Shown here one piece after another: positions 12,804 to 59,061 of a stretch of 59,081 nt of DNA. How positions within the stretch are numbered: the first letter of the stretch is position 1; each line of letters opens with the position of its first letter. The notes under the pieces were generated by a model that was not told where the DNA came from, did not search any database, and saw nothing but the letters and a program-made list of their open reading frames with translations. Position numbers and translations under genes: made by a program. Source of the DNA: a virus; the IMG/VR virus record IMGVR_UViG_3300029497_000003; one strand, written 5' to 3'.

Positions 12804-13925
12804 CTATTCGACAACTAACTGGAACTTGTCGATAGCATTACCCATAACACCTGCATATCCGTCCATTCCGTTAGATGTTTCATCATCTATCTGCTCTGGA
12901 TAGAAGTTGCGGTTGTTGAATACAGATACCATATACTTAGCATACTTCCAAGGCTCACCCTCTGGTGTATAGTAGATGATTTCTACGGCATCTATCGGTG
13001 TTTTCTGGTCGCCTGCAAAGCCGTTGTTGAAATCATTATAATTGAAATCTGTAACATAAGGAAGCCAATCACCGCCCTTTAAGTGAACTCTGTACTTAAC
13101 TGAACCTCTGCTAACCTTGATAATAAGTGCTGTGATAGCTTTATTGTCGCCTGCACCAGCCCAATCTTCTCTGTCCTCTACTTCACCCCACCACCTATCT
13201 GTATAAGCGGCATATGTAGCATATACGTGTTCATCTGTGTTATCCTCTGTATTGTCTTCTTCGCTGTTATCTTCTGTATTATCTTCATCATTATGAAAGC
13301 CATAAAATTCTGATAAGTCGCAAACTCCGTCTACACCGTCAATTCTTGCGCTAGAAGTATACTGCCACCCCGCAAGATAATGGTCGATACTGGGTGTCTT
13401 ATCCGCATTAACATCATCATTTAACTGCATTTCATCATAACCTAAGTAGTAACGTGCAATCCAGAACGGACAATCTAAGTCGCTAGGGTTTGTATAAGGC
13501 TTGATGTAGCTACCATAGAATGATAAGCCAGTATATACGCCAAAGTTATATCCTGCACCCTCAATAACCTCTTTATATGCCTTTATAATGTCGATAAGCT
13601 CTGAACCTAAGTTCTGCATACATTCATCTTCAACGTCCATCCAAACTGTTACCTTACGTCCGTCAAGCACTTCAAGTACTCTCTTAGCCGTTGCAACCGC
13701 TTCTTCTACTGTCAGTGTGTATACATAGTTATATACACCGCAGATATGCACACCTGCTAACTGACAGCCTTTCCAGTTATTTTCAAACTGCTTATCTGGG
13801 TCAAAATCACGTCTGATAACCTTAAGGACAGCGTGAGTAAGTCCTGCCGCCTTAACTCTATCCCAGTCAATATCACCATTCCACGCTGAAAAATCTCCAC
13901 ACTTAATCATACTAAAATACCTCAC
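12804..13925 (-). CDS. endolysin, GH25 muramidase with acidic repeat linker and C-terminal binding domain
   Basis: GDFSAWNGDIDWDRVKAAGLTHAVLKV GH25 N-terminus; DNTEDNSEEDNTEDNTDE linker. Confidence 0.8.
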   Translation of the reverse strand: MRYFSMIKCGDFSAWNGDIDWDRVKAAGLTHAVLKVIRRDFDPDKQFENNWKGCQLAGVHICGVYNYVYTLTVEEAVATAKRVLEVLDGRKVTVWMDVEDECMQNLGSELIDIIKAYKEVIEGAGYNFGVYTGLSFYGSYIKPYTNPSDLDCPFWIARYYLGYDEMQLNDDVNADKTPSIDHYLAGWQYTSSARIDGVDGVCDLSEFYGFHNDEDNTEDNSEEDNTEDNTDEHVYATYAAYTDRWWGEVEDREDWAGAGDNKAITALIIKVSRGSVKYRVHLKGGDWLPYVTDFNYNDFNNGFAGDQKTPIDAVEIIYYTPEGEPWKYAKYMVSVFNNRNFYPEQIDDETSNGMDGYAGVMGNAIDKFQLVVE

Positions 13926-47084: not shown

Positions 47085-48756
47085 CAGACTGTAGACAAAG
47101 TGGCACTAGGATACAAAGCTTAGTGCCACTTGTCTCTGAATTTTAAATAATTTTATACCTTTTAATATTTTATGTTGTTTTTTACATATATTATGTGGAT
47201 AATCTCCACTTACCTCCCTGTATTTTTCTAACATCCTTGCTAATTTTTTAAGATTCATGCATGCAAAAGTAAGCCCTGCTTTCATTTCCATACGGGCTTT
47301 TCCTATCATCTGTGTATATCTAAATCCATGATTCTCTTTGGCTGTTCCAAAAAGTCTCTCTATCGTTTCTTTTCTGTGAGAATAAAGTTCCTTCATTCCT
47401 ATTGATAATCTTATATCTTCACACTTTTCTATATAATCTTCCCAGATATGTCTTGTTACCAACTTTACATGATTTTTGCTTTCGGTACATTGACTTATAT
47501 ATGGGCAGTTACTGCATGTTTCCGAACAGCTCTTATATTCTTTATACCCATCACGATTAGTTGTTGAATATTTAAGAACTGCGTTGTTAGGACATATATA
47601 ACAATCAAAGTATTCATCATAAACATACTCATATTTCTTAAAGAATCCTTGTTTTGTCATTGGTCTCTTATATGGAAGAAGTGGCTGAATACCATCATCT
47701 ATCAATAGCTTTGCAATTGCAGGAGTTTTATATCCTGCATCCGCTACAAGTGTTTTTATTCCTATATCTTTTATCTTATTATACAAACTTATAAAGGTTC
47801 TGCTATCATGCATATTTCCAGGATTAACTGAGTAACCAAGAATCCAGCCAAACTTATCACATGCAGTTTCAATTGAATATGCGAATACATGCTTATGTTC
47901 ACCTTTCCGGAACCATCCGCTTTCTGGATCGGTTGTGCTGCACTTAATAGTTTTCTCATCTTTCGGAACATCTGTCGTAAAGTCTTTCATTCCTCCGCCA
48001 GAAGATGACTTATCATTATCTTTATCTGAATCCTTCAAAGGCTTCTTTCCATGAGCCTCTCTGTCAGAATTTATTTCTTTTTTTAAGAGTTCTTCATAAA
48101 ACAAAGCTTGTTCATGAGCAATCTTTGCTCTCATTTTTTTACTGTTAGCACATGCTTTCACATGAGTTGCATCAACAAACACTTCTGTTGGATCAACAAA
48201 TTTATACTTATAACATTCTGATAAGATATGAGAAAAGATTTGTTCAAACAAGTCTGTATCCTTAAATCTACGAGTGTAGTTTTTACCAAATGTAGAAAAG
48301 TGGGGAACAGAATCATTCATTTCCAATCCCAAAAACCAACGGTAAGCAACATTAACTTCTATTTCTTTCATAGTCTGCCGCATACTTTTAATTCCATAAA
48401 GATACTGAATAAAAGGAATCTTTATAAGCATTACTGGATCCATACTAGGTCGTCCAAAATCAGGAGAATACTTATCCTGAACAAGGTCATAAATAAAGTT
48501 CCAATCTATTGCTTTATCAATCACTCTTAAAAGATGATCTTTTGGCACTAAATCATCCATACAGAACATCTGAATCTGTTCTCTTTTTTTATCTGCATTG
48601 ACTGTCATCATAAAACACTCACCACCTGATTTTTGATATAATAATTATATCAAAAAAGTGCTACAAAGTAAGTATTTATCTGCATTTGTCACATTTTAAT
48701 TAATCCTGAAATAAGAAAAATCCGAGACTTTCGCCTCGGACTTTGTCTACAGTCTG
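47085..48756 (-). mobile_element. IS1182-family insertion sequence
   Basis: 17-bp terminal inverted repeats cagactgtagacaaagt (47085-47101 and 48740-48756) around one transposase gene. Confidence 0.8.
47106..48611 (-). CDS. IS1182-family DDE transposase
   Basis: LVPKDHLLRVIDKAIDWNFIYDLV...GRPSMDPVMLIKI...MRQTMKEIEVNVAYRWFLG. Confidence 0.8.
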   Translation of the reverse strand: MMTVNADKKREQIQMFCMDDLVPKDHLLRVIDKAIDWNFIYDLVQDKYSPDFGRPSMDPVMLIKIPFIQYLYGIKSMRQTMKEIEVNVAYRWFLGLEMNDSVPHFSTFGKNYTRRFKDTDLFEQIFSHILSECYKYKFVDPTEVFVDATHVKACANSKKMRAKIAHEQALFYEELLKKEINSDREAHGKKPLKDSDKDNDKSSSGGGMKDFTTDVPKDEKTIKCSTTDPESGWFRKGEHKHVFAYSIETACDKFGWILGYSVNPGNMHDSRTFISLYNKIKDIGIKTLVADAGYKTPAIAKLLIDDGIQPLLPYKRPMTKQGFFKKYEYVYDEYFDCYICPNNAVLKYSTTNRDGYKEYKSCSETCSNCPYISQCTESKNHVKLVTRHIWEDYIEKCEDIRLSIGMKELYSHRKETIERLFGTAKENHGFRYTQMIGKARMEMKAGLTFACMNLKKLARMLEKYREVSGDYPHNICKKQHKILKGIKLFKIQRQVALSFVS

Positions 48757-48765
48757 TAGCACCGA

Positions 48766-49521
48766 TTATTCGGTGCTTTTCTTTATATCTTCGATTGCAT
48801 CTTTTATACTCATATGATTATTATTTATTCTTCCATATAATTTACCATATGAAATATTTTCCATTCTTGAAATTTGAGCCAATATAAGTGCTTGCCCTTT
48901 CCATTCATATTTTTTATTTCTTCGCTTATTTATTGCTTGTTCTTGAATAGTAACCCATCTGCAATTTTCAGGACAATAACCTTTATCGTTATCTATTCTG
49001 TCTAATGAAAGACCATGCTTATATCCGTTTCTCATAGACCAAGCGATAAAATTTTTAACACCATCCTTTCCTCTCCATTCAAAGCAAACATCTATTCCTC
49101 TTGCTCCGTAATAAGGATAACTTATATTTTTTTCATCATAACATCTTTCCATCATACTCTTGTGTTTTCTGTATAATGGACTATCAGTATATCTTTCAAT
49201 TCCAAGCTCTTTTTTGATTGCTTTGTTTTGTCTTATGTTCCTATATAGTTTTTGGTGTGCGCTGTTTTGGTCTTTGCAATTTTTATTTCCCAATACACAA
49301 TTCTCTGGGCAATAATCCTTTGTACTATCAATTCTGTTAAGTCTTAGACCTTTTGTATATCCATTTTCATTACACCACTTTCTAAAATTATCTCTATCAT
49401 GCCATTCTTCACATACTTTTATCCCCTTAGCTCCGTAACTTTTAAATGCTATACTTTTAGGGTTATAACATCTTCTCATCATTTCGTAATGTAGTCCACC
49501 TATACTGTTTAAGTCAGCCAT
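48766..49521 (-). CDS. duplicated-domain DNA-binding protein (degenerate HNH_3-like repeats)
   Basis: Two copies of Y..M..RCY......YGA.GI.VC.EW....F..W...NGY..GL.L.RID....YCPENC. Confidence 0.45.
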   Translation of the reverse strand: MADLNSIGGLHYEMMRRCYNPKSIAFKSYGAKGIKVCEEWHDRDNFRKWCNENGYTKGLRLNRIDSTKDYCPENCVLGNKNCKDQNSAHQKLYRNIRQNKAIKKELGIERYTDSPLYRKHKSMMERCYDEKNISYPYYGARGIDVCFEWRGKDGVKNFIAWSMRNGYKHGLSLDRIDNDKGYCPENCRWVTIQEQAINKRRNKKYEWKGQALILAQISRMENISYGKLYGRINNNHMSIKDAIEDIKKSTE

Positions 49522-49633: not shown

Positions 49634-49813
49634 TGGCAAAATCAAAAACATCATCAGAAGTAAAAAATCGTTGGAATGAGAAAAATTATGATAGAATTAC
49701 AGTAATGGCACCCAAGGGCAAAAAGGAAGTCTGGTCTAAGACTGCTAAAGAAAAAGGATTCAAAGGATTAAGTGGATATATTATCGACTGCGTAGAAAAA
49801 GCTGGCGAATAAT
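49634..49813 (+). CDS. 59-aa ribbon-helix-helix-like protein (below the ORF-track cutoff)
   Basis: My own translation: MAKSKTSSEVKNRWNEKNYDRITVMAPKGKKEVWSKTAKEKGFKGLSGYIIDCVEKAGE. TTGCAA-17-TATAAT promoter with palindrome atactttataaagtat. Confidence 0.5.
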
Positions 49814-49955
49814 TATTTTGCCAGCTTACAACATTTTTCTGTATAAATCAATGCCTTACTTGCATACCGGCATTGACTAAGCTCATATACCAACAGTTCC
49901 TTTGTCATAGCCGGATTAGTCTTTTGAACTATCTTTAACAACTCATCAATACTCA

Positions 49956-50276
49956 TTATCCCACTCTCCTAACTGCCCCAAGTACCATATCAACAATGTC
50001 AAATACTTCATCTCCATATGTTGCTACAAAATCACACAATATCTCTTCCTGTTCGATAGGCAAATACACATCATAGGACATACAGATTGCGTGGCATACT
50101 TCGTGTATAAGCACTTTGCGTTGCATAAATCCACGCAAGGCATTTGACAGATAAATTGTATGTGTATTTCTATCTGTTACGCCTAGCACAGAAACATTGT
50201 CTGACCGCTTTAATTCGCCCGAATTTGAATTTTTATATTGTACTTGCCACATTGTACCATTAATGCTAAAAATCAT
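49956..50276 (-). CDS. small HExxH metallopeptidase-like protein
   Basis: VLIHEVCHAI. Start MIFSING after an AAAGGAGC RBS. Confidence 0.5.
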   Translation of the reverse strand: MIFSINGTMWQVQYKNSNSGELKRSDNVSVLGVTDRNTHTIYLSNALRGFMQRKVLIHEVCHAICMSYDVYLPIEQEEILCDFVATYGDEVFDIVDMVLGAVRRVG

Positions 50277-50335
50277 CTGTATGCTCCTTTCTGAATAAAA
50301 CAGGCTATGAATATTGCTACCCATAGCCTTTAATC

Positions 50336-50953
50336 TTAGAATTTTGACATAAGATTATTCATATTATTCTTGATTAAACTCTTTTCTTCGGTCGTTGCGT
50401 TATCGCTAACTATTTTAATTATCTCATTAGTAACAGTTTTAATGTATTTATCTAATGCTTTCATTCTTTGCTCTTTGTCCTCTGGTGTAGTGCCACTGTG
50501 CATTTCTTTAGTTTCTGTGTAGTTTCTCTTTGCTCTGTCGTAATTACTTTCAGACATTGGCTCTGTATAATACATCTTGCCATAATCCCTATCCATATCC
50601 CTCATATGCTCTGCTTCTGGGTACATGTGCATATAAGGCGGTTCTTCATATCCTCTGCGGTATGTTCCGTGTCCTTTCGGCGCAAATCTTCCATCTGCAT
50701 AGCGGTAATGGTTGTAAAATCTCCTGTCCGGATAATCTTCGTACTGTTCAAGCATACGCATAATATCCTCATTATCTTCTGACTTTTCCATAGCTTCAAC
50801 AATTCTGTAATCCTTGTCAAAGCAAGCTATGTTCTTCGCTATTTCTGTAAAATCCTTTAAATCGTCAAGATTCTGTCCTTCAAAATTGTCAATTCCAATT
50901 CCGTCAACTTTAGCCTTGACACATTCCATAATCTGTTTAGCCCATTTATGCAT
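50336..50953 (-). CDS. hypothetical Y/R/E/M-rich protein (cargo cassette)
   Basis: 205 aa with a low-complexity centre: YRYADGRFAPKGHGTYRRGYEEPPYMHMYPEAEHMRDMDRDYGKMYY. Confidence 0.55.
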   Translation of the reverse strand: MHKWAKQIMECVKAKVDGIGIDNFEGQNLDDLKDFTEIAKNIACFDKDYRIVEAMEKSEDNEDIMRMLEQYEDYPDRRFYNHYRYADGRFAPKGHGTYRRGYEEPPYMHMYPEAEHMRDMDRDYGKMYYTEPMSESNYDRAKRNYTETKEMHSGTTPEDKEQRMKALDKYIKTVTNEIIKIVSDNATTEEKSLIKNNMNNLMSKF

Positions 50954-50957
50954 AATA

Positions 50958-51377
50958 TCAAGCCTCCCTTACCGCAATCAAATTACTGTTCTGAACCTCG
51001 ATAGCCTGTGCGGACGTATTCTGCACCGCTACTGTACTGCAACAACCACAAGGTACATCCACGTATGCCTGAGCCGAAACGTTAAATAAATTTTCGACTG
51101 CTGCCGGTGTTACAATCATTCGTGTTGACTGCAAAGGCTCTCCGTCTACTGCAATGGCAAGTGAGATAGCTTCAACTGTACCACCTGTCGGTATCTGAAT
51201 GTTTCCGCTATAAGATACTAAAAATCTAGCCTTACACTGATTAGTAATACCTCTTAGCTTGATAATTCCACTTCCTTGTCTGTGGACTATACATTTGCTA
51301 CCGCATACCGGTGTTTCTGTAAATGCAACATCTTCTCCGGCGGCAACTGTTTGTAATGCAATTCCTGTTATTTCCAT
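50958..51377 (-). CDS. Cys-rich beta-jelly-roll-like protein (resembles BclA C-terminal / DUF3992 Ena-type subunits)
   Basis: MEITGIALQTV..GEDVAFT...ARFLVSYSGNIQIP...ISLAIAVDGEPL...VPCGCCSTVAVQNTSAQAIEVQNSNLIAVREA. 7 Cys. AGAGAGG RBS. Confidence 0.45.
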   Translation of the reverse strand: MEITGIALQTVAAGEDVAFTETPVCGSKCIVHRQGSGIIKLRGITNQCKARFLVSYSGNIQIPTGGTVEAISLAIAVDGEPLQSTRMIVTPAAVENLFNVSAQAYVDVPCGCCSTVAVQNTSAQAIEVQNSNLIAVREA

Positions 51378-51499
51378 TATTTTTACCTCTCTTTCATAAA
51401 AATAAGGGCAAACATTATAGTCTGCCCTTTGGTTATAAGTAATACTGCTTAGCAGACATAATCGAGTTAAACTCAATTAAGATACTCAATTATTCAGTT

Positions 51500-52288
51500 T
51501 TAGCAGCCACATCCTGTATTGCAACCACATCCATAAGCATAAGCATTAGGATTAGGCACAACATAAGCTGGAATAGCCGTAGGATTTACAGAGTTGATAA
51601 TCTGCTGTGTCTGAGCTGCCATCTGAGTTGTAAGAAGTGCATTCTGTCTATCCTGTGATGCGGCTCTGCGTAAATCGTTGTTCTCTGCTGTAAGTGTTGC
51701 TATCTTATCATTTGTTAAGAAATCAAGGATAGCTCTCGTTCCTGCCTGCTGGCTGTCGATAATATCTCTTGTGTTGTTGCACATTGTGTTCTGTAAAGCA
51801 CAAGTGTTAGTTGCCATGTTGTAGTTTACGCCTTGAATAGCTTCTCTCGTCTCGCAGCAGCAGTTAGCAAGCTGTGACTGTAAAGCGTTTGTATTCTGCA
51901 TATTAGCGACTGTATCAGCGTTAATAGCCTGCTGGATGCCATAACCAGTCTGCATGATATTTGTGTTAATACCATTAAAACCAGTAAGCATGCTATTGTT
52001 CATAGCGTAGAAGCCATCACAAAGTCCGTTAGAAATACCATCTAACTTGCTAATAACTGCGGAATTATCAAATCCTCTCTGAATATCAGCCTGTGTAGCT
52101 GCTGTCACAACATAGCCACCGCCATTGTTACCACCAAAGCCACCAAATCCGCCATTGCCCCATCCAAAGAGTAATGCGAATACAACGATTATCCAAAGCC
52201 ATCCGCCGTCAGCCCATCCGCCGTTATTGCCGTTGCCGTCAATATTAGCGACTAATGGTACGCTGGCACAATTTGAGTTTGAAAACAT
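51500..52288 (-). CDS. Gly-rich single-pass membrane protein with N/Q/T-rich helical ectodomain and Cys-Gly tail
   Basis: AGGAGG RBS. GNGNNGGWADGGWLWIIVVFALLFGWGNGGFGGFGGNNGGG...ANCCCETREA...YAYGCGCNTGCGC. Confidence 0.55.
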   Translation of the reverse strand: MFSNSNCASVPLVANIDGNGNNGGWADGGWLWIIVVFALLFGWGNGGFGGFGGNNGGGYVVTAATQADIQRGFDNSAVISKLDGISNGLCDGFYAMNNSMLTGFNGINTNIMQTGYGIQQAINADTVANMQNTNALQSQLANCCCETREAIQGVNYNMATNTCALQNTMCNNTRDIIDSQQAGTRAILDFLTNDKIATLTAENNDLRRAASQDRQNALLTTQMAAQTQQIINSVNPTAIPAYVVPNPNAYAYGCGCNTGCGC

Positions 52289-52358
52289 ATTGTTACCTCC
52301 TAAAAATATATTCATAAAGATGTCACCTAGGTAATTTGCAAAGACATCTAATATGCTA

Positions 52359-52589
52359 CTAATTACCAAATCTGCTTTTTATCTGATTAAATACATCATC
52401 TGCATTCAATCCCTTTTCTTTGCATAAATTTCTAGCCATCTGCTCTATGCCTTGCATATTGCCCTGCTGTGCCATCTGCATAGTGTTTTTCATCATAGGA
52501 TTGCTCATAATCTGATTGTTCCCCATCATCTGCTGTATGAACTGTTGCGGACCAGCTTTCATCATCTGAAAAATGTTAATTGGGTTCAT
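52359..52589 (-). CDS. small M/Q/N-rich protein
   Basis: MNPINIFQMMKAGPQQFIQQMMGNNQIMSNPMMKNTMQMAQQGNMQG. Confidence 0.5.
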   Translation of the reverse strand: MNPINIFQMMKAGPQQFIQQMMGNNQIMSNPMMKNTMQMAQQGNMQGIEQMARNLCKEKGLNADDVFNQIKSRFGN

Positions 52590-53110
52590 TCTTCATCACC
52601 GCCCTTGCTTTGAGTTCTTGAAGTTTTTCTTTGCGTTCCTAAAGATTTATCAAATCTATCTTCCAACTGCCCTATTTTCTCTGACAATTCCTTAAACTTA
52701 TTCAGAAATAGCTGTGTGCTTTCATCTGATAGGGTAAATTTAGCATTTTCTGCATCAGGTATAGAATTTACTGTCTGATTATCTTTAGGGGCTGTATAAG
52801 GCTTATACACAATCGTTCTAATTGTTCCGTCAGCATTCCAGCCCTTAACATAAATCTCCGACATATCCTGCTTAGGAAAAAAAGCCATTGAGCCATCCAT
52901 AGGGACCTCGTTAGCGTTTATATTTTCAACCGCTTGCACAACTCTGCCGTTAATACCTATTATCTGCTGTGGAATAGTTTGCTGAACTTGTGATTGCTGT
53001 ATCTGCTCCTGCGGCTGAAATCTCTGGATATTTGCCATAGGATTATATTGATATGCTCCATATTGAGGTACATAATTACTCATAATCGGTTGCTGATAAG
53101 GATTGTTCAT
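52586..53110 (-). CDS. protein with a Q/P/Y-rich N-terminus and a beta-rich core
   Basis: MNNPYQQPIMSNYVPQYGAYQYNPMANIQRFQPQEQIQQSQVQQ, then GINGRVVQAVENINANEVPMDGSMAFF. Confidence 0.55.
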   Translation of the reverse strand: MNNPYQQPIMSNYVPQYGAYQYNPMANIQRFQPQEQIQQSQVQQTIPQQIIGINGRVVQAVENINANEVPMDGSMAFFPKQDMSEIYVKGWNADGTIRTIVYKPYTAPKDNQTVNSIPDAENAKFTLSDESTQLFLNKFKELSEKIGQLEDRFDKSLGTQRKTSRTQSKGGDEE

Positions 53111-53276
53111 TGTCTGCCTCCTCTAAAACTTCCTCGATTGCGTGGATAACAAGAGATAATGTCACTAAGTCAAGTTTCTGCAATTCTTCTTTGCTTAAGA
53201 TTTTTTCTCTAACTTCATCAGAAAACATTCGCATTACCTCTCTTTCTAATTACATTTTTGCATAAAAAAAATCACT

Positions 53277-53320
53277 TATAGCGACACATAATAGACATAT
53301 GTGCGACATATAAGCGACAA
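53277..53320. repeat. four 11-bp phased direct repeats, core (G/T)(C/A)GACA
   Basis: gcgaca at 53281, tagaca at 53292, gcgaca at 53303, gcgaca at 53314. Spacing is exactly 11 bp. Confidence 0.85.
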
Positions 53321-53363
53321 TGCTGAAATTATATAATTGTAAAACGTGATAAATACGGCATTA

Positions 53364-53390
53364 GCACTTCCTATATGCTATAGGAACTGC
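53364..53390. promoter_or_regulatory. imperfect palindrome next to the integrase stop (attP core candidate or hairpin)
   Basis: gcacttcctata-tgc-tataggaactgc, 12 of 13 symmetric positions. Confidence 0.3.
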
Positions 53391-53402
53391 ATTAAGTTTA
53401 TG

Positions 53403-54764
53403 CTAAAAATTCTTAAGCTGTATTTCAATATTCCCATTGACAATTACTATCTTGTCAATTATAGTCTTTAGTATCAAGTTCTTTTGTTTCTTGTCGACCT
53501 TATCCCAAATGTCGGCAAGTTTTTTTATGTTCTCATAAACAAACTCCTTTTTTTGTGTATTAATTGCGTTTTTGCTTTCAGCGGCAATGTTTAATTTCAT
53601 TTCCTTAATCTGTGCTTCCAGTTCCTTAATCATTTCCAAGACAGTATCATTTCCGTCAGCATACAGATTATACAATCTTTTTAGCTTAATCTGTTCCTTT
53701 TCAAGCTGTGATTGCATAATTTCAAGTTTTGTCGCCTTTTCTTTTGGCTTGTAAGATGATAAATCAAGTGATATTTTAAGAATTTCTTCTTCTACTTGTT
53801 TCTCTATCTCGTCCGCCCATTCAAGCGAATTATTACAGCTTGCATTATAATTAGGCAGATATGAAAGTGATTTATTTCTTGAACAGCAATAAATCTTATG
53901 CTTTTCACTACCCCATTTTTGATAACGCATTTTGCAACCACAAATTCCACAATAACATAATCCGGTCAATAAATTAGGTTCAGTTATGCAGTAAGTTTTT
54001 GCTGAACACCTTGACTTTCTTAGTTCTAATCCAAGATTAAACCTATCTTTATCAAAAATAGGTTCGTGTTTTCCTTGATATATTTTGCCTTTGTAAGGTA
54101 TCATTCCGATATTTACAACGCCGGTCAAAATGCTTCTAGTAACAAGTTCAGACTTAAAGCCACAAATTTCTTTAATTTTCGCATCTGAATAGCCAGATAT
54201 GAACAATTCAAGACCTCTTCTTGCCTGTTCTGCACGTTCCGGGATAGGTATTAATATGCCTTGTTCCTTACTGTAGGAATAACAGTAAGGCAAATTGCCA
54301 CCGCCCATCCAGTAACCCTGCTTAATTCTTTCAAGCATACCGCCACGCATACGCAACATCATAGTATTTTTATCAAGCTGTGCAAATACAGCCATCATCT
54401 GCGTGTAAGCCTGCTCCATAGGACTATTATAGCTTACACTATCGTGTACACATTTAAACACAACATTATATTTTTGAAATACTTTTTCAATTAGATATAT
54501 TCCGTCAATCATATTTCTTGATAATCTGTCAAGTTTAAAAGCTACAACACAACTTACTCTTTTGCGGCTACAATCATTCACAAGCCTTTGAAGTTCTGGT
54601 CTATCCATATTTGTACCTGTGTAACCATCGTCAATATACCAATCTGTTATTACAAGCTCATTTTTTCTGCAATAGTTTTCAATATCCCTTTTCTGGCTAT
54701 CAAGTCCGTTGCCCTCAACAGCCTGTTTTTCAGTGGATACTCTCATATAAGCAACACATTCCAT
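53403..54764 (-). CDS. int: large serine recombinase (integrase)
   Basis: VAYMRVSTEKQ, DDGYTGTNMDRP, FKLDRLSRN, Cys-rich zinc ribbon, C-terminal coiled coil. Start MECVAY after an AAGGGAGA RBS. Confidence 0.9.
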   Translation of the reverse strand: MECVAYMRVSTEKQAVEGNGLDSQKRDIENYCRKNELVITDWYIDDGYTGTNMDRPELQRLVNDCSRKRVSCVVAFKLDRLSRNMIDGIYLIEKVFQKYNVVFKCVHDSVSYNSPMEQAYTQMMAVFAQLDKNTMMLRMRGGMLERIKQGYWMGGGNLPYCYSYSKEQGILIPIPERAEQARRGLELFISGYSDAKIKEICGFKSELVTRSILTGVVNIGMIPYKGKIYQGKHEPIFDKDRFNLGLELRKSRCSAKTYCITEPNLLTGLCYCGICGCKMRYQKWGSEKHKIYCCSRNKSLSYLPNYNASCNNSLEWADEIEKQVEEEILKISLDLSSYKPKEKATKLEIMQSQLEKEQIKLKRLYNLYADGNDTVLEMIKELEAQIKEMKLNIAAESKNAINTQKKEFVYENIKKLADIWDKVDKKQKNLILKTIIDKIVIVNGNIEIQLKNF

Positions 54765-54923
54765 ATTTTTCTCCCTTATAAAAAAATGTGCCGCATTTAT
54801 CACATTATACGGCACATTGTAACACATATTTACTTATTGTCAATTATCTCTGCGATTATCTTTAGTAAGCTGTCTGAAAGAGTTATGTTTTCTGTTTTCA
54901 CACTCTCTCCGTTTTGAGTAACC

Positions 54924-55136
54924 TTAATCATTATATCCCTCCAACTTACTTATTTTCTTTTTGATTTTAATTATTTTGCGATTAACTGTCCTATCACACA
55001 CGGACAGCCGCATAGCAATTTCCGTAATGCTTCTGCCCTGTGATAGTAACTTGAATATTCTCAATTCTTCTTCTGTAAAATTGGCATTTTCAATTATTCT
55101 TTCAAGCTCTGGCTTAGTCAGTTCTGAAAACTTCAT
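54924..55136 (-). CDS. small sigma-70 region-4 / LuxR-type HTH protein
   Basis: LSQGRSITEIAMRLSVCDRTVNRKIIKIKKKI. Confidence 0.6.
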   Translation of the reverse strand: MKFSELTKPELERIIENANFTEEELRIFKLLSQGRSITEIAMRLSVCDRTVNRKIIKIKKKISKLEGYND

Positions 55137-58548: not shown

Positions 58549-59061
58549 TTAATCTCCTTGCTTGATATTCAAATTCTTAAACATAGCACACATAACATCT
58601 ACAACTATGCTGTTACCAAATTGCTTGTATAACTGCGTGTTGCTGTTTACTGCTGCCATTTTGGATATATCCTCGTCTGATACTCCCATCAGACGTCCGC
58701 ATTCTCTCGGTGTTAGTTTTCTAATCCTATATTGTGGCTCAATCACAAGGTTATCTTTCTGCACACTCGTCAAGCAATTACTTGTGCCTTGCATATTTAC
58801 CTCCAATCTCTGTTCTGTTGGGCTTCCCACAGTTCTATCTGACGGATTATCAGGATTTCTACCGCGCATAGCAACTATCTGACTTTCACACACTTTAATC
58901 TGTTGTGTACCGCCACCCTCAACTGTTGTAATGTTGGGGCAAAGTGCATTTTCATCATATACTGTGTTTGATTGGTGCTTGCCTGTGCCATTATCCATAA
59001 ATCCTAATTGCCTTGCTTCAAGAATTTTCGGTTCTTGATTGCCACCTTGCATTGTACTCAA
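58549..59061 (-). CDS. DNA (cytosine-5)-methyltransferase, 3' segment (TRD modules plus motifs IX-X)
   Basis: CPNITTVEGGGTQQ, AMRGRNPDNP...QRLE...SNCLTSVQKDN, RKLTPRECGRLMG (IX), GNSIVVDV (X). Frame stays open upstream to the poly-G tract: CSPTLSTMQGG. Confidence 0.85.
   Translation of the reverse strand: MSTMQGGNQEPKILEARQLGFMDNGTGKHQSNTVYDENALCPNITTVEGGGTQQIKVCESQIVAMRGRNPDNPSDRTVGSPTEQRLEVNMQGTSNCLTSVQKDNLVIEPQYRIRKLTPRECGRLMGVSDEDISKMAAVNSNTQLYKQFGNSIVVDVMCAMFKNLNIKQGD

Follow-up and report, generated by a model that had tools for sequence, protein, structure and literature searches.

What does a compact run of small genes, none of which resembles a standard phage function, contribute to the viruses that carry it? 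The question is raised by IMG/VR virus record IMGVR_UViG_3300029497_000003 (59,081 nucleotides, the whole of which is termed the window in the following). Eight minus-strand open reading frames (ORFs), packed closely or overlapping, run here from 53234 down to 49813. They are named after the length of their products in amino acids and follow each other as p50, p174, p76, p262, p139, p205, p122 and p47. A first-pass annotation, made from the sequence alone, had described the block as integrase-proximal cargo that might build or decorate a surface or spore structure. All ORFs listed in it are present on the minus strand, non-random and co-oriented, so that the block itself stood; its title counted six genes and its list seven, while the total is eight. 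The block is best explained as a self-contained, horizontally mobile phage accessory operon. As a system, this operon matches nothing described.

A scan of 185,579 species genomes yielded 80 loci with relatives of p139 at 43–94% identity. Lachnospiraceae, Oscillospiraceae, Acutalibacteraceae and Ruminococcus are among the host groups, besides others, and contigs of rumen metagenome-assembled genomes (MAGs) are included. These loci (L085 to L164) and three more (L001, L002 and L083) make up a set of 83 loci of Clostridia phages, in which the families were sought by iterated hidden Markov model searches. The p139 family is found in all 83 loci, the p262 family in 79, the p205 family, directly after p139, in 74 and the p174 family in 67. 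A small helix-turn-helix (HTH) protein precedes p174 in 52 loci. Less frequent are p122 (19 loci), p76 (13), p50 (10, always just before p174, whether an integrase is nearby or not) and p47 (8, after p122). Clustering of the loci revealed three further recurrent members, F5, F6 and F12, the last of which is positioned after p205.

The commonest gene order is HTH, p174, p262, p139, p205. The full module reads HTH, (F5), p174, p76 or F6, p262, p139, p205, (p122), and the ancestral order is a GerE/LuxR-type HTH, (F5), (p50), p174, p76 or F6, p262, p139, p205, (p122, p47). In Dulem virus 39, the integrase is followed by the full set of eight genes in unchanged order, and in Butyrivibrio virus Ceridwen, which encodes no integrase, p262 and p139 adjoin. 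The genes co-occur as a module in the same order in other phages, in keeping with their earlier treatment as one cassette. A lack of co-occurrence among homologues, which the first-pass annotation had named as a refutation, was thus not observed.

The module is found at different sites in these phages. Many loci have it behind a GH25 endolysin and small, holin-like transmembrane proteins and ahead of a reverse-strand integrase. In L160, L089 and L091 it is flanked by a MuF-like head gene on one side and by scaffold and capsid genes on the other, and in the window by the integrase and the HNH/packaging genes. The non-module proteins of the window are common to at most 7 of 81 loci. The GC content of the cassette is 39–40%, compared to 33–35% in its flanks. 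The position at the edge of the prophage was confirmed in the lysogens L083 and L179, where the cassette is the outermost prophage block.

The relation of the block to the integrase is the reverse of that first suggested. The usual first gene of the module, encoding a GerE/LuxR-type HTH protein of 70 amino acids resembling sigma region 4 (54924-55136, minus strand), is parted in the window from the remaining module genes by a large serine integrase of 474 amino acids (53403-54827, minus strand; Resolvase and Zn_ribbon_recom domains), which is not a module member. In L096, L102 and L112 the HTH gene directly abuts p50 and p174 with no integrase between them. Since the three genes run on uninterrupted in these relatives, the integrase and its attP site are the unit that was inserted into the module and not its carrier. 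The small, acidic and helical p50 (53076-53228, minus strand, 50 amino acids; 53234 and 52 amino acids from an upstream ATG), the 3' end of which overlaps the start of p174, was also considered as a directionality factor of the integrase. This was ruled out, as p50 follows the HTH gene in loci without integrase.

The statement that no described system is recognisable holds for Pfam, NCBIfam, PADLOC and PHROG annotations as well as for the literature. The window proteins p174, p76, p262, p139 and p205 have no match in Pfam or NCBIfam, and PADLOC-DB 2.0 provided no defence-system model beyond a weak match of p262 to the ZorA coiled coil (E 0.006) and a generic HTH. PHROGs places p139 (phrog_20016, 7e-67), p262 (phrog_16490, 1e-57), p174 (phrog_21718) and p122 (phrog_1233, 2e-18) in four families of unknown function. 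Sequence searches of the PDB with p139 and p262 as single sequences and profile searches of it with the p139, p174, F5 and p205 families gave nothing, and scans of the p174, p262 and F5 families against Pfam, member by member, gave nothing useful. A megablast of the region against the phage collection returned no DNA match. Nuclease, ATPase or NADase effector domains were found in none of the module members, and a literature search on DUF7841, BclA-like phage proteins and prophages integrating into sigG retrieved nothing relevant.

The product of the most conserved gene, p139 (50958-51377, minus strand), had been compared to the TNF/C1q-like C-terminal domain of BclA, and in this point structure prediction agrees. 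The AlphaFold2 (AF2) model, calculated from a two-clade alignment (A1), is confident (predicted local distance difference test, pLDDT, 86; predicted template modelling score 0.81) and shows an all-beta jelly-roll of TNF topology. The best matches in a Foldseek search of the PDB were, in this order, the C-terminal domain of F-BclA (9h38), ExsFA (7r1m), BxpB (8d02) and BclA (1wck), with template modelling scores of 0.69–0.77 and E values of 3e-7 to 1e-5. TNF ligands (EDA, 4-1BBL), C1q-like domains and phage fibre and spike knobs were matched as well. In BFVD, the fold matches are stand-alone gut-phage proteins of 135–145 amino acids, some of them named 'BclA protein'. Pfam BclA_C (PF18573) is reached by 5 of the 83 p139 family members (best 3.8e-5), while p139 of the window itself does not match PF18573 at E ≤ 0.1.

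For the window protein itself, the likeness to the exosporium proteins of the Bacillus cereus group is one of fold. With ExsFA/BxpB, p139 shares not only the TNF-type jelly-roll but also the stand-alone format (approximately 140–165 amino acids, no stalk), and it lacks the collagen-like GXX repeat region of BclA. The conserved cysteine pattern PC...C...GCC sets p139 apart from BclA_C; six cysteines were counted instead of the seven reported earlier. Moreover, ExsFA/BxpB belong to a sporulation regulon, whereas p139 is encoded in a phage operon in all 83 loci, one of them on a non-sporulating Butyrivibrio. The resemblance to DUF3992 endospore appendage (Ena) subunits proposed in the first-pass annotation was not borne out: neither p139 nor its 83 relatives hit DUF3992, and no Ena protein is among the 50 best PDB fold matches. 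An Ena subunit was rejected also on structural grounds, as p139 does not possess the N-terminal extension bearing the cysteine connector; its first strand begins at residue 2.

A profile search of 1.84 billion representatives with p139 gave 814 clusters at 50% identity. The family is nearly always stand-alone (135–155 amino acids), with an end-to-end match among the best 150 representatives. More than 4,000 homologues of p139 and approximately 8,000 of p262 were found (90% clusters), and the exact p139 sequence of the window is present on 201 contigs. Compared in one common set of 300 locus pairs, the families have mean identities of 56% (p139), 40% (p262), 30% (p205) and 29% (p174), which makes p139 the slowest-evolving member of the module. 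Slow evolution is the opposite of what would be expected of a receptor-binding tip, and p139 therefore fits a hub rather than a receptor binder. Since p139 additionally has no relative among the tail proteins of the window, roles as a receptor decoy or as the tip of a receptor-binding protein were ruled out.

The second key component, p262 (51500-52288, minus strand), is 271 amino acids long if translated from an alternative ATG at 52315 (27 nucleotides upstream), as in public gene calls. The features quoted for it in the first-pass annotation (GGWLWIIVVFALLFGWGNGGFGGFGG, CCC and the tail YAYGCGCNTGCGC) were all found in the sequence. At the N-terminus, the family alignment (A4) opens with a short motif, followed by a hydrophobic helix that is bordered by Gly and Trp. 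A linker rich in Gly leads to a helical region, in which CCC is near-invariant and the motif AASQxAQN is found, and the motif PxPAYxVxNP and a Cys-rich tip close the sequence. An AF2 model of low overall confidence, built from a shallow alignment, consists of a helix at residues 30–41, a disordered linker and a continuous helix from residue 75 to 234; at 1.5 Å per residue, the approximately 160 residues of the latter correspond to a length of about 24 nm. A fold search with the model had no hits. Among the core families (p174, p76/F6, p262, p139, p205 and F5), a recurrent transmembrane-like segment is found only in p262, and neither such a segment nor a signal-like N-terminus was detected in p174, p76/F6, p139, p205 or F5. 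Two of 18 p122-type peptidases pass the hydropathy threshold used for the transmembrane-like segments. On the predicted topology, p262 is a single-pass membrane protein. Co-variation of cysteines in p262 and p139 is uninformative, because both motifs are near-universal (66 of 70 loci).

Relatives of p262 are not restricted to Clostridia phages. They are encoded in more than 15 Crassvirales genomes (Suoliviridae), in C3_41T2LP, an isolated phage of Bacteroides uniformis, and in csAssE-Sib, while Clostridium perfringens phage CPD1 encodes a p262 relative together with p174-, p76- and HTH-like genes. The crAss-like member cr1_1 gp063 matches phrog_16490 at 1e-38. In crAss-like phages, the gene is usually preceded by those for a holin, a LysB/FtsL-like protein and a DUF7841 protein, in this order, and followed by those for a beta-rich protein (113–180 amino acids) and then a protein of approximately 188 amino acids; sometimes an endolysin gene is nearby. 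Annotated holin, LysB/FtsL-like or endolysin genes adjoin the p262 relative in five of the seven Crassvirales loci inspected. The depositors of crAss-like genomes named the p262 relatives 'spike protein/glycoprotein' or 'outer capsid protein/viral fiber'. A PolyVal-type metallopeptidase closes the p262 block of the Bacteroides phage.

In crAss-like and Bacteroides phages, DUF7841 (PF25223) proteins, often with a tail rich in R, Y, D and E, are encoded directly ahead of the p262-like gene or in its neighbourhood (L166:2024-2620, L168:3719-4459, L167:7093-7491), and this tail resembles the low-complexity centre of p205. In several Suoliviridae (L166, L169, L170, L172 and L173), annotated genes of the p262-like block contain in-frame stops under translation table 11. 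Recoding of stop codons has been reported for crAss-like phages. The in-frame stops are consistent with it, and homology searches based on standard translation consequently fragment these genes.

The remaining gene products are mostly of low complexity. In p174 (52586-53110, minus strand), an N-terminus rich in Q, P and Y is followed by a central domain that is conserved (WVxGE..YxVxPG..LxDS...YLKS.D.SG.P) and by a helical tail of charged residues (alignment A3). p76 (52359-52589, minus strand) consists of Met, Gln and Asn to 16, 16 and 14%, respectively. In 34 loci its slot is filled by F6 (approximately 73 amino acids, Q/M-rich, phrog_22984), of which p76 is a positional analogue. p205 (50336-50953, minus strand) has one helix at each end and between them a tract rich in Y, R, E, D, P and M (G/Y/S/R/D-rich across the family; alignment A9). 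p122 (49956-50324, minus strand) contains the HExxH-type motif HEVCH and reaches Peptidase_M78 (PF06114) barely, with 22.1 bits against a cutoff of 22.0 (E 1.4e-4) and over 41 residues only. F5, at the front of the module, is a protein of approximately 127 amino acids with invariant Cys17, His97 and Asp108 (alignment A8) and belongs to phrog_3754. F5 but not p122 occurs in 32 loci, p122, at the back of the module, without F5 in 18, and both together in one. This near mutual exclusion suggests a non-orthologous replacement of one small peptidase. The HTH protein reaches Pfam GerE (PF00196) with 26.1 bits (cutoff 23.5). p47 (49813-49956, minus strand), the last small ORF of the operon, converges with a plus-strand ORF of 59 amino acids.

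The attP site of the integrase (53361-53402, minus strand) consists of an imperfect 12-nucleotide inverted repeat (I2) around an 8-bp core, GCAGTTCC (53383-53390). As attP is intact, the window represents an excised, circular or virion form rather than an integrated one. The core is common to attP, attL (L179) and attR (L174). On the cassette side, a host ORF of 102 amino acids with sigma70 region 2 only is found (L179:5318-5760), and on the integrase side an ORF of 163 amino acids with sigma regions 3-4 (L174:8380-8938). The rebuilt attB encodes ...FSTYAVP/MIIGEIKRYLRDN... within an intact sigma factor of 259 amino acids, the insertion being at the codons for YAVP/MIIGEI (the slash marks the junction). 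Its identity to the Bacillus subtilis sigma factors is approximately 55% for SigG, 47% for SigF and about 33% for SigE and SigK. Judged from the joined flanks, the window prophage splits a sigG-like sporulation sigma gene, and precise excision would restore the ORF.

A sigG-like gene is the target in at least four further loci, including the isolate Lachnospira intestinalis CLA-AA-H89B. L080 and L056 have the same sigG junction as the window lineage, in which the cassette is co-oriented with the 5' fragment of sigG. In L101 and in L086, an isolate of Lachnospira intestinalis, the cassette adjoins the 3' half of sigG and the two diverge; read-through from the promoter of sigG was therefore discarded as a general feature. 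The copy in L083 is integrated elsewhere, next to metA.

Prophages of this kind are known as the skin (sigK), SP-beta (spsM) and gin (gerE) elements. The window likewise encodes a large serine recombinase, its insertion site lies inside the coding region of a sporulation gene, and a short core is present in attP, attL and attR, from which precise excision would be expected to rebuild the ORF. The described intervening elements interrupt genes expressed in the mother cell (PMC5595907, PMC4191935, PMC5025042). The target of the window prophage, in contrast, is a gene for a sigG-like forespore sigma factor, and excision in the forespore would cure the spore of the prophage. This likeness concerns the unit of integrase and attP and not the function of the module. 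In the searchable literature, no description of a sigG-interrupting prophage was found. A functional-looking prophage with a large serine integrase at a conserved block of sigG codons is a new candidate for a sporulation switch in the dominant gut Lachnospiraceae, and the integrase with its att sites would be a new specific recombination system.

Regulatory signals were also found in the window. A strong sigma70-like promoter precedes the integrase gene (54843-54816, minus strand) and a second one the HNH-like gene downstream of the cassette. Because the latter gene has its own promoter, the cassette is a transcription unit apart from the packaging genes. Upstream of p50, direct repeats GCGACA(C/T)ATAA (family D1; 53281-53319, minus strand) are a candidate operator of the regulator. 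At the same position, L083, a relative with 80% identity, holds a different repeat, GTGTAGTAA, in three copies (L083:8960-9010). A changed sequence at an unchanged position is expected of operators that co-evolve with their regulator, and the repeats may be such sites. Between p262 and p139, just upstream of the ribosome-binding site of p139, lies a terminator-like hairpin with a U-run (51404-51429, minus strand; delta G -17.9 kcal/mol, z -5.6). It could act as an internal attenuator or terminator or as an mRNA-stabilising element and set the ratio of p262 to p139. The loop of the hairpin holds a perfect TATAAT.

From these data we infer oligomeric states, binding partners, membrane orientation, expression timing and biological role of the gene products as follows. 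The module may specify a membrane-tethered assembly with an envelope function at a late, lysis or egress stage, which is not specific for spores; this reading is favoured tentatively. The assembly would be built in vegetative, phage-directed cells. p262 would insert via its single Gly/Trp-flanked hydrophobic helix and carry an alpha-helical stalk of about 24 nm, probably an oligomeric coiled coil, with the Pro/Cys-rich tip at its end. By analogy to ExsFA/BxpB, p139 might be a trimer and the structural hub, which would dock to the tip of the stalk, to peptides of p174 and p205 with their low-complexity tracts, or to both. Before insertion, the hydrophobic helix could be shielded by p76 with its many Met and Gln residues, and one small peptidase (p122 here, F5 elsewhere) may mature a component. 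Since none of the partners has a signal peptide, assembly would take place on the cytoplasmic face of the membrane or after the membrane is opened by the holin. A late role in envelope, lysis or egress is favoured because p262 relatives are found beside lysis genes in two unrelated groups of phages and because Ceridwen, to present knowledge a lytic phage, carries the module.

Known lysis proteins provide a partial parallel. Like i-spanins (lambda Rz, P2 LysB) and holins with large ectodomains (T4 T), p262 has its transmembrane helix at the N-terminus, a helical domain of considerable length, cysteines that are conserved and a C-terminal region rich in Pro, and its relatives often adjoin holin or endolysin genes. 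It differs from them in having no sequence similarity to either. No adjacent protein with a hydrophobic N-terminus was found as a candidate o-spanin partner, in a search that was not exhaustive for the lipobox. Most hosts of the module are Clostridia, which are generally monoderm and have no outer membrane to fuse. In addition, crAss-like genomes already hold a separate LysB/FtsL-like gene beside the p262-like gene.

Several observations weigh against a late envelope assembly. The overall pLDDT of the p262 model is low (56), its hydrophobic core is short (14–16 residues), and the net charges of the flanks (N-terminal -0.85, C-terminal +0.14) indicate the orientation only weakly. The holin and LysB labels in crAss-like records are predictions of the depositors. 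The beta-rich and the 188-amino-acid neighbours of p262 in crAss-like phages align to p139 and p174 with an hhalign probability below 1%, so that the context may not transfer; without detectable homology of these neighbours, the whole module is not claimed for Crassvirales. In the window, the module is approximately 36 kb away from the GH25 endolysin (12804-13925). Finally, its own HTH regulator and the usual location between lysin and integrase favour a function expressed in the lysogen.

Such a function could be exerted on the spore, as the first-pass annotation had supposed. The operon would then be switched on in sporulating lysogens and form a layer similar to coat or exosporium on a spore membrane, in the cytoplasm of the mother cell (or forespore), where signal peptides are not needed. 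Exosporium proteins (BclA-CTD, the C-terminal domain of BclA, and ExsFA/BxpB) come first among the fold matches of p139, and a GerE-type mini-regulator, Cys-rich as well as Q- and G/Y-rich proteins, a small peptidase and missing signal peptides mirror coat biology, in which GerE, ExsY/CotY, GerQ and YabG/Tgl have corresponding parts. The window prophage and at least four relatives interrupt a sigG-like gene, and the cassette adjoins the junction, co-oriented with the 5' fragment in the window lineage, and most gut Lachnospiraceae are predicted spore-formers. As a general function, however, a spore or exosporium role is not supported by the distribution of the genes. Ceridwen carries the module, infects the non-sporulating Butyrivibrio fibrisolvens and was seen only as lytic (PMC7372960). 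Rumen MAG contigs carry it as well, and 84% of rumen-associated Firmicutes are reported as 'former spore-formers' (PMC8340488). The p262 family, moreover, is widespread in Crassvirales and present in a Bacteroides uniformis phage. The hosts of Crassvirales are Bacteroidales. The orientation to sigG is not conserved (L086 and L101), other copies are located elsewhere (L083, at metA), and fibres and knobs of phages show the TNF fold just as often. Together, the host of Ceridwen, the rumen contigs and the Crassvirales relatives make a spore-specific role of the whole module unlikely, and conversion of the spore by lysogens is regarded as improbable. A further reading appears quite improbable: a portable kit in phages of gut anaerobes for a coat-like layer on a membrane, rich in cysteine and low-complexity proteins, which is deployed at sporulation in spore-forming hosts and coupled in the window lineage to the sigG-splitting prophage. 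Besides the bilayer anchor with its 24-nm stalk and a TNF hub of the ExsFA type, the kit would comprise matrix proteins, a peptidase for maturation and the GerE-like regulator. If it were true, the phage would gate sporulation and re-dress the spore or hitch a ride in it, and a phage-encoded analogue of exosporium assembly would be joined to a new sporulation-gene switch.

The geometry of a shaft of about 24 nm with a TNF-like head is also that of the Sf6 tail needle, PRD1 P5 and reovirus sigma-1, and a coiled-coil shaft with a TNF-like knob is the classic design of phage and viral fibres; the knob of the P22-like Sf6 needle is TNF-like. p262 might accordingly be a virion shaft anchored by its hydrophobic N-terminus and p139 a knob on a separate chain, with p174, p76, p205 and the peptidase as chaperones of assembly or factors of maturation. 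Fold hits were obtained to the phi812 spike knob, to a short tail fibre of a cyanophage and to many BFVD entries resembling fibres, the module lies inside the head-gene cluster in L160, L089 and L091, and the GC content of the cassette is as high as that of structural genes. In crAss-like phages, p262 relatives stand among genes annotated as virion or tail proteins, and the C-terminus of one neighbour matches phrog_473 'virion structural protein' at 1e-8. In contrast to the fibres named, shaft and knob are separate polypeptides in the module, the knob is conserved and not hypervariable, and the Gly-flanked, Trp-bordered hydrophobic helix of the shaft resembles an anchor for a lipid bilayer. 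A decoration would need a matching docking site, yet the module is linked to no single virion gene set and moves among phages that share almost no other proteins. Slowest evolution of p139 is unlike receptor-binding tips, the tail genes of the window hold no relative of it, and virion proteins do not typically come with an HTH regulator of their own or follow the lysis genes, as the module usually does. A fibre or decoration of the virion is thus considered unlikely. The same low rank is given to a protection of the envelope by the prophage, in which a membrane-anchored complex in lysogens would exclude superinfecting phages or act in another way against phages or competitors. In prophages of Firmicutes, genes for lysogenic conversion (morons) are located in the region from lysin to integrase; the module is similarly portable, occupies variable sites, often this region or the prophage edge, and comes with a regulator and with repeats that are candidate operators. 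The long stalk of its membrane protein and its mobility between unrelated phages would suit this function as well. The module differs from morons in its unusual size (six to nine genes) and fixed internal order, and no toxin, enzyme or known exclusion domain is encoded in it. PADLOC models beyond generic coiled-coil and HTH noise and enzymatic effector domains are missing, and seven or eight mostly structural or low-complexity proteins are unusual for an exclusion system. The module is also present in the integrase-less Ceridwen and the p262 family in crAss-like phages, which are not known as classically temperate. Each of these three explanations keeps real support, and the probability left over belongs to functions that were not thought of.

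The module is abundant, with copies in thousands of gut phages, and its order is conserved in phages of gut and rumen Clostridia, whereas every member is of 'unknown function' in the libraries searched. Solving its function would annotate a sizeable part of the dark matter of the gut virome and could reveal a new step between phage and host envelope, be it control of lysis, egress or a protein layer at the membrane.

Downstream of the cassette, the block was said to lie upstream of an insertion sequence (IS) element. This is correct as to the order, but the 47- and 59-amino-acid ORFs and a gene for a 251-amino-acid HNH/AP2-like protein lie between the block and the IS transposase. The transposase (501 amino acids, 47106-48611, minus strand) is encoded between the HNH-like gene and the packaging region, and DUF772, DDE_Tnp_1 and DDE_Tnp_1_6 are assigned to it in public gene calls. 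It is also found in the matching contig (L175/L177), while the related prophage L083 has no DNA match to that stretch; the transposase is probably a recent insertion. The 251-amino-acid 'HNH endonuclease' (48766-49521, minus strand; phrog_3377) is made up of an AP2-like DNA-binding unit that occurs twice, and inspection by eye revealed no obvious HNH catalytic motif. Ceridwen encodes its homologue (L001:9494-10288) within the module, where it separates p139 from p205. Upstream of the replication genes, a C5 DNA methylase region (58549-59061 in the window; L174:1557-3279; L175:1562-3279) is called in close relatives as two genes of 308 and 190 or of 264 and 167 amino acids. Some copies of the methylase may carry frameshifts or an intervening element.

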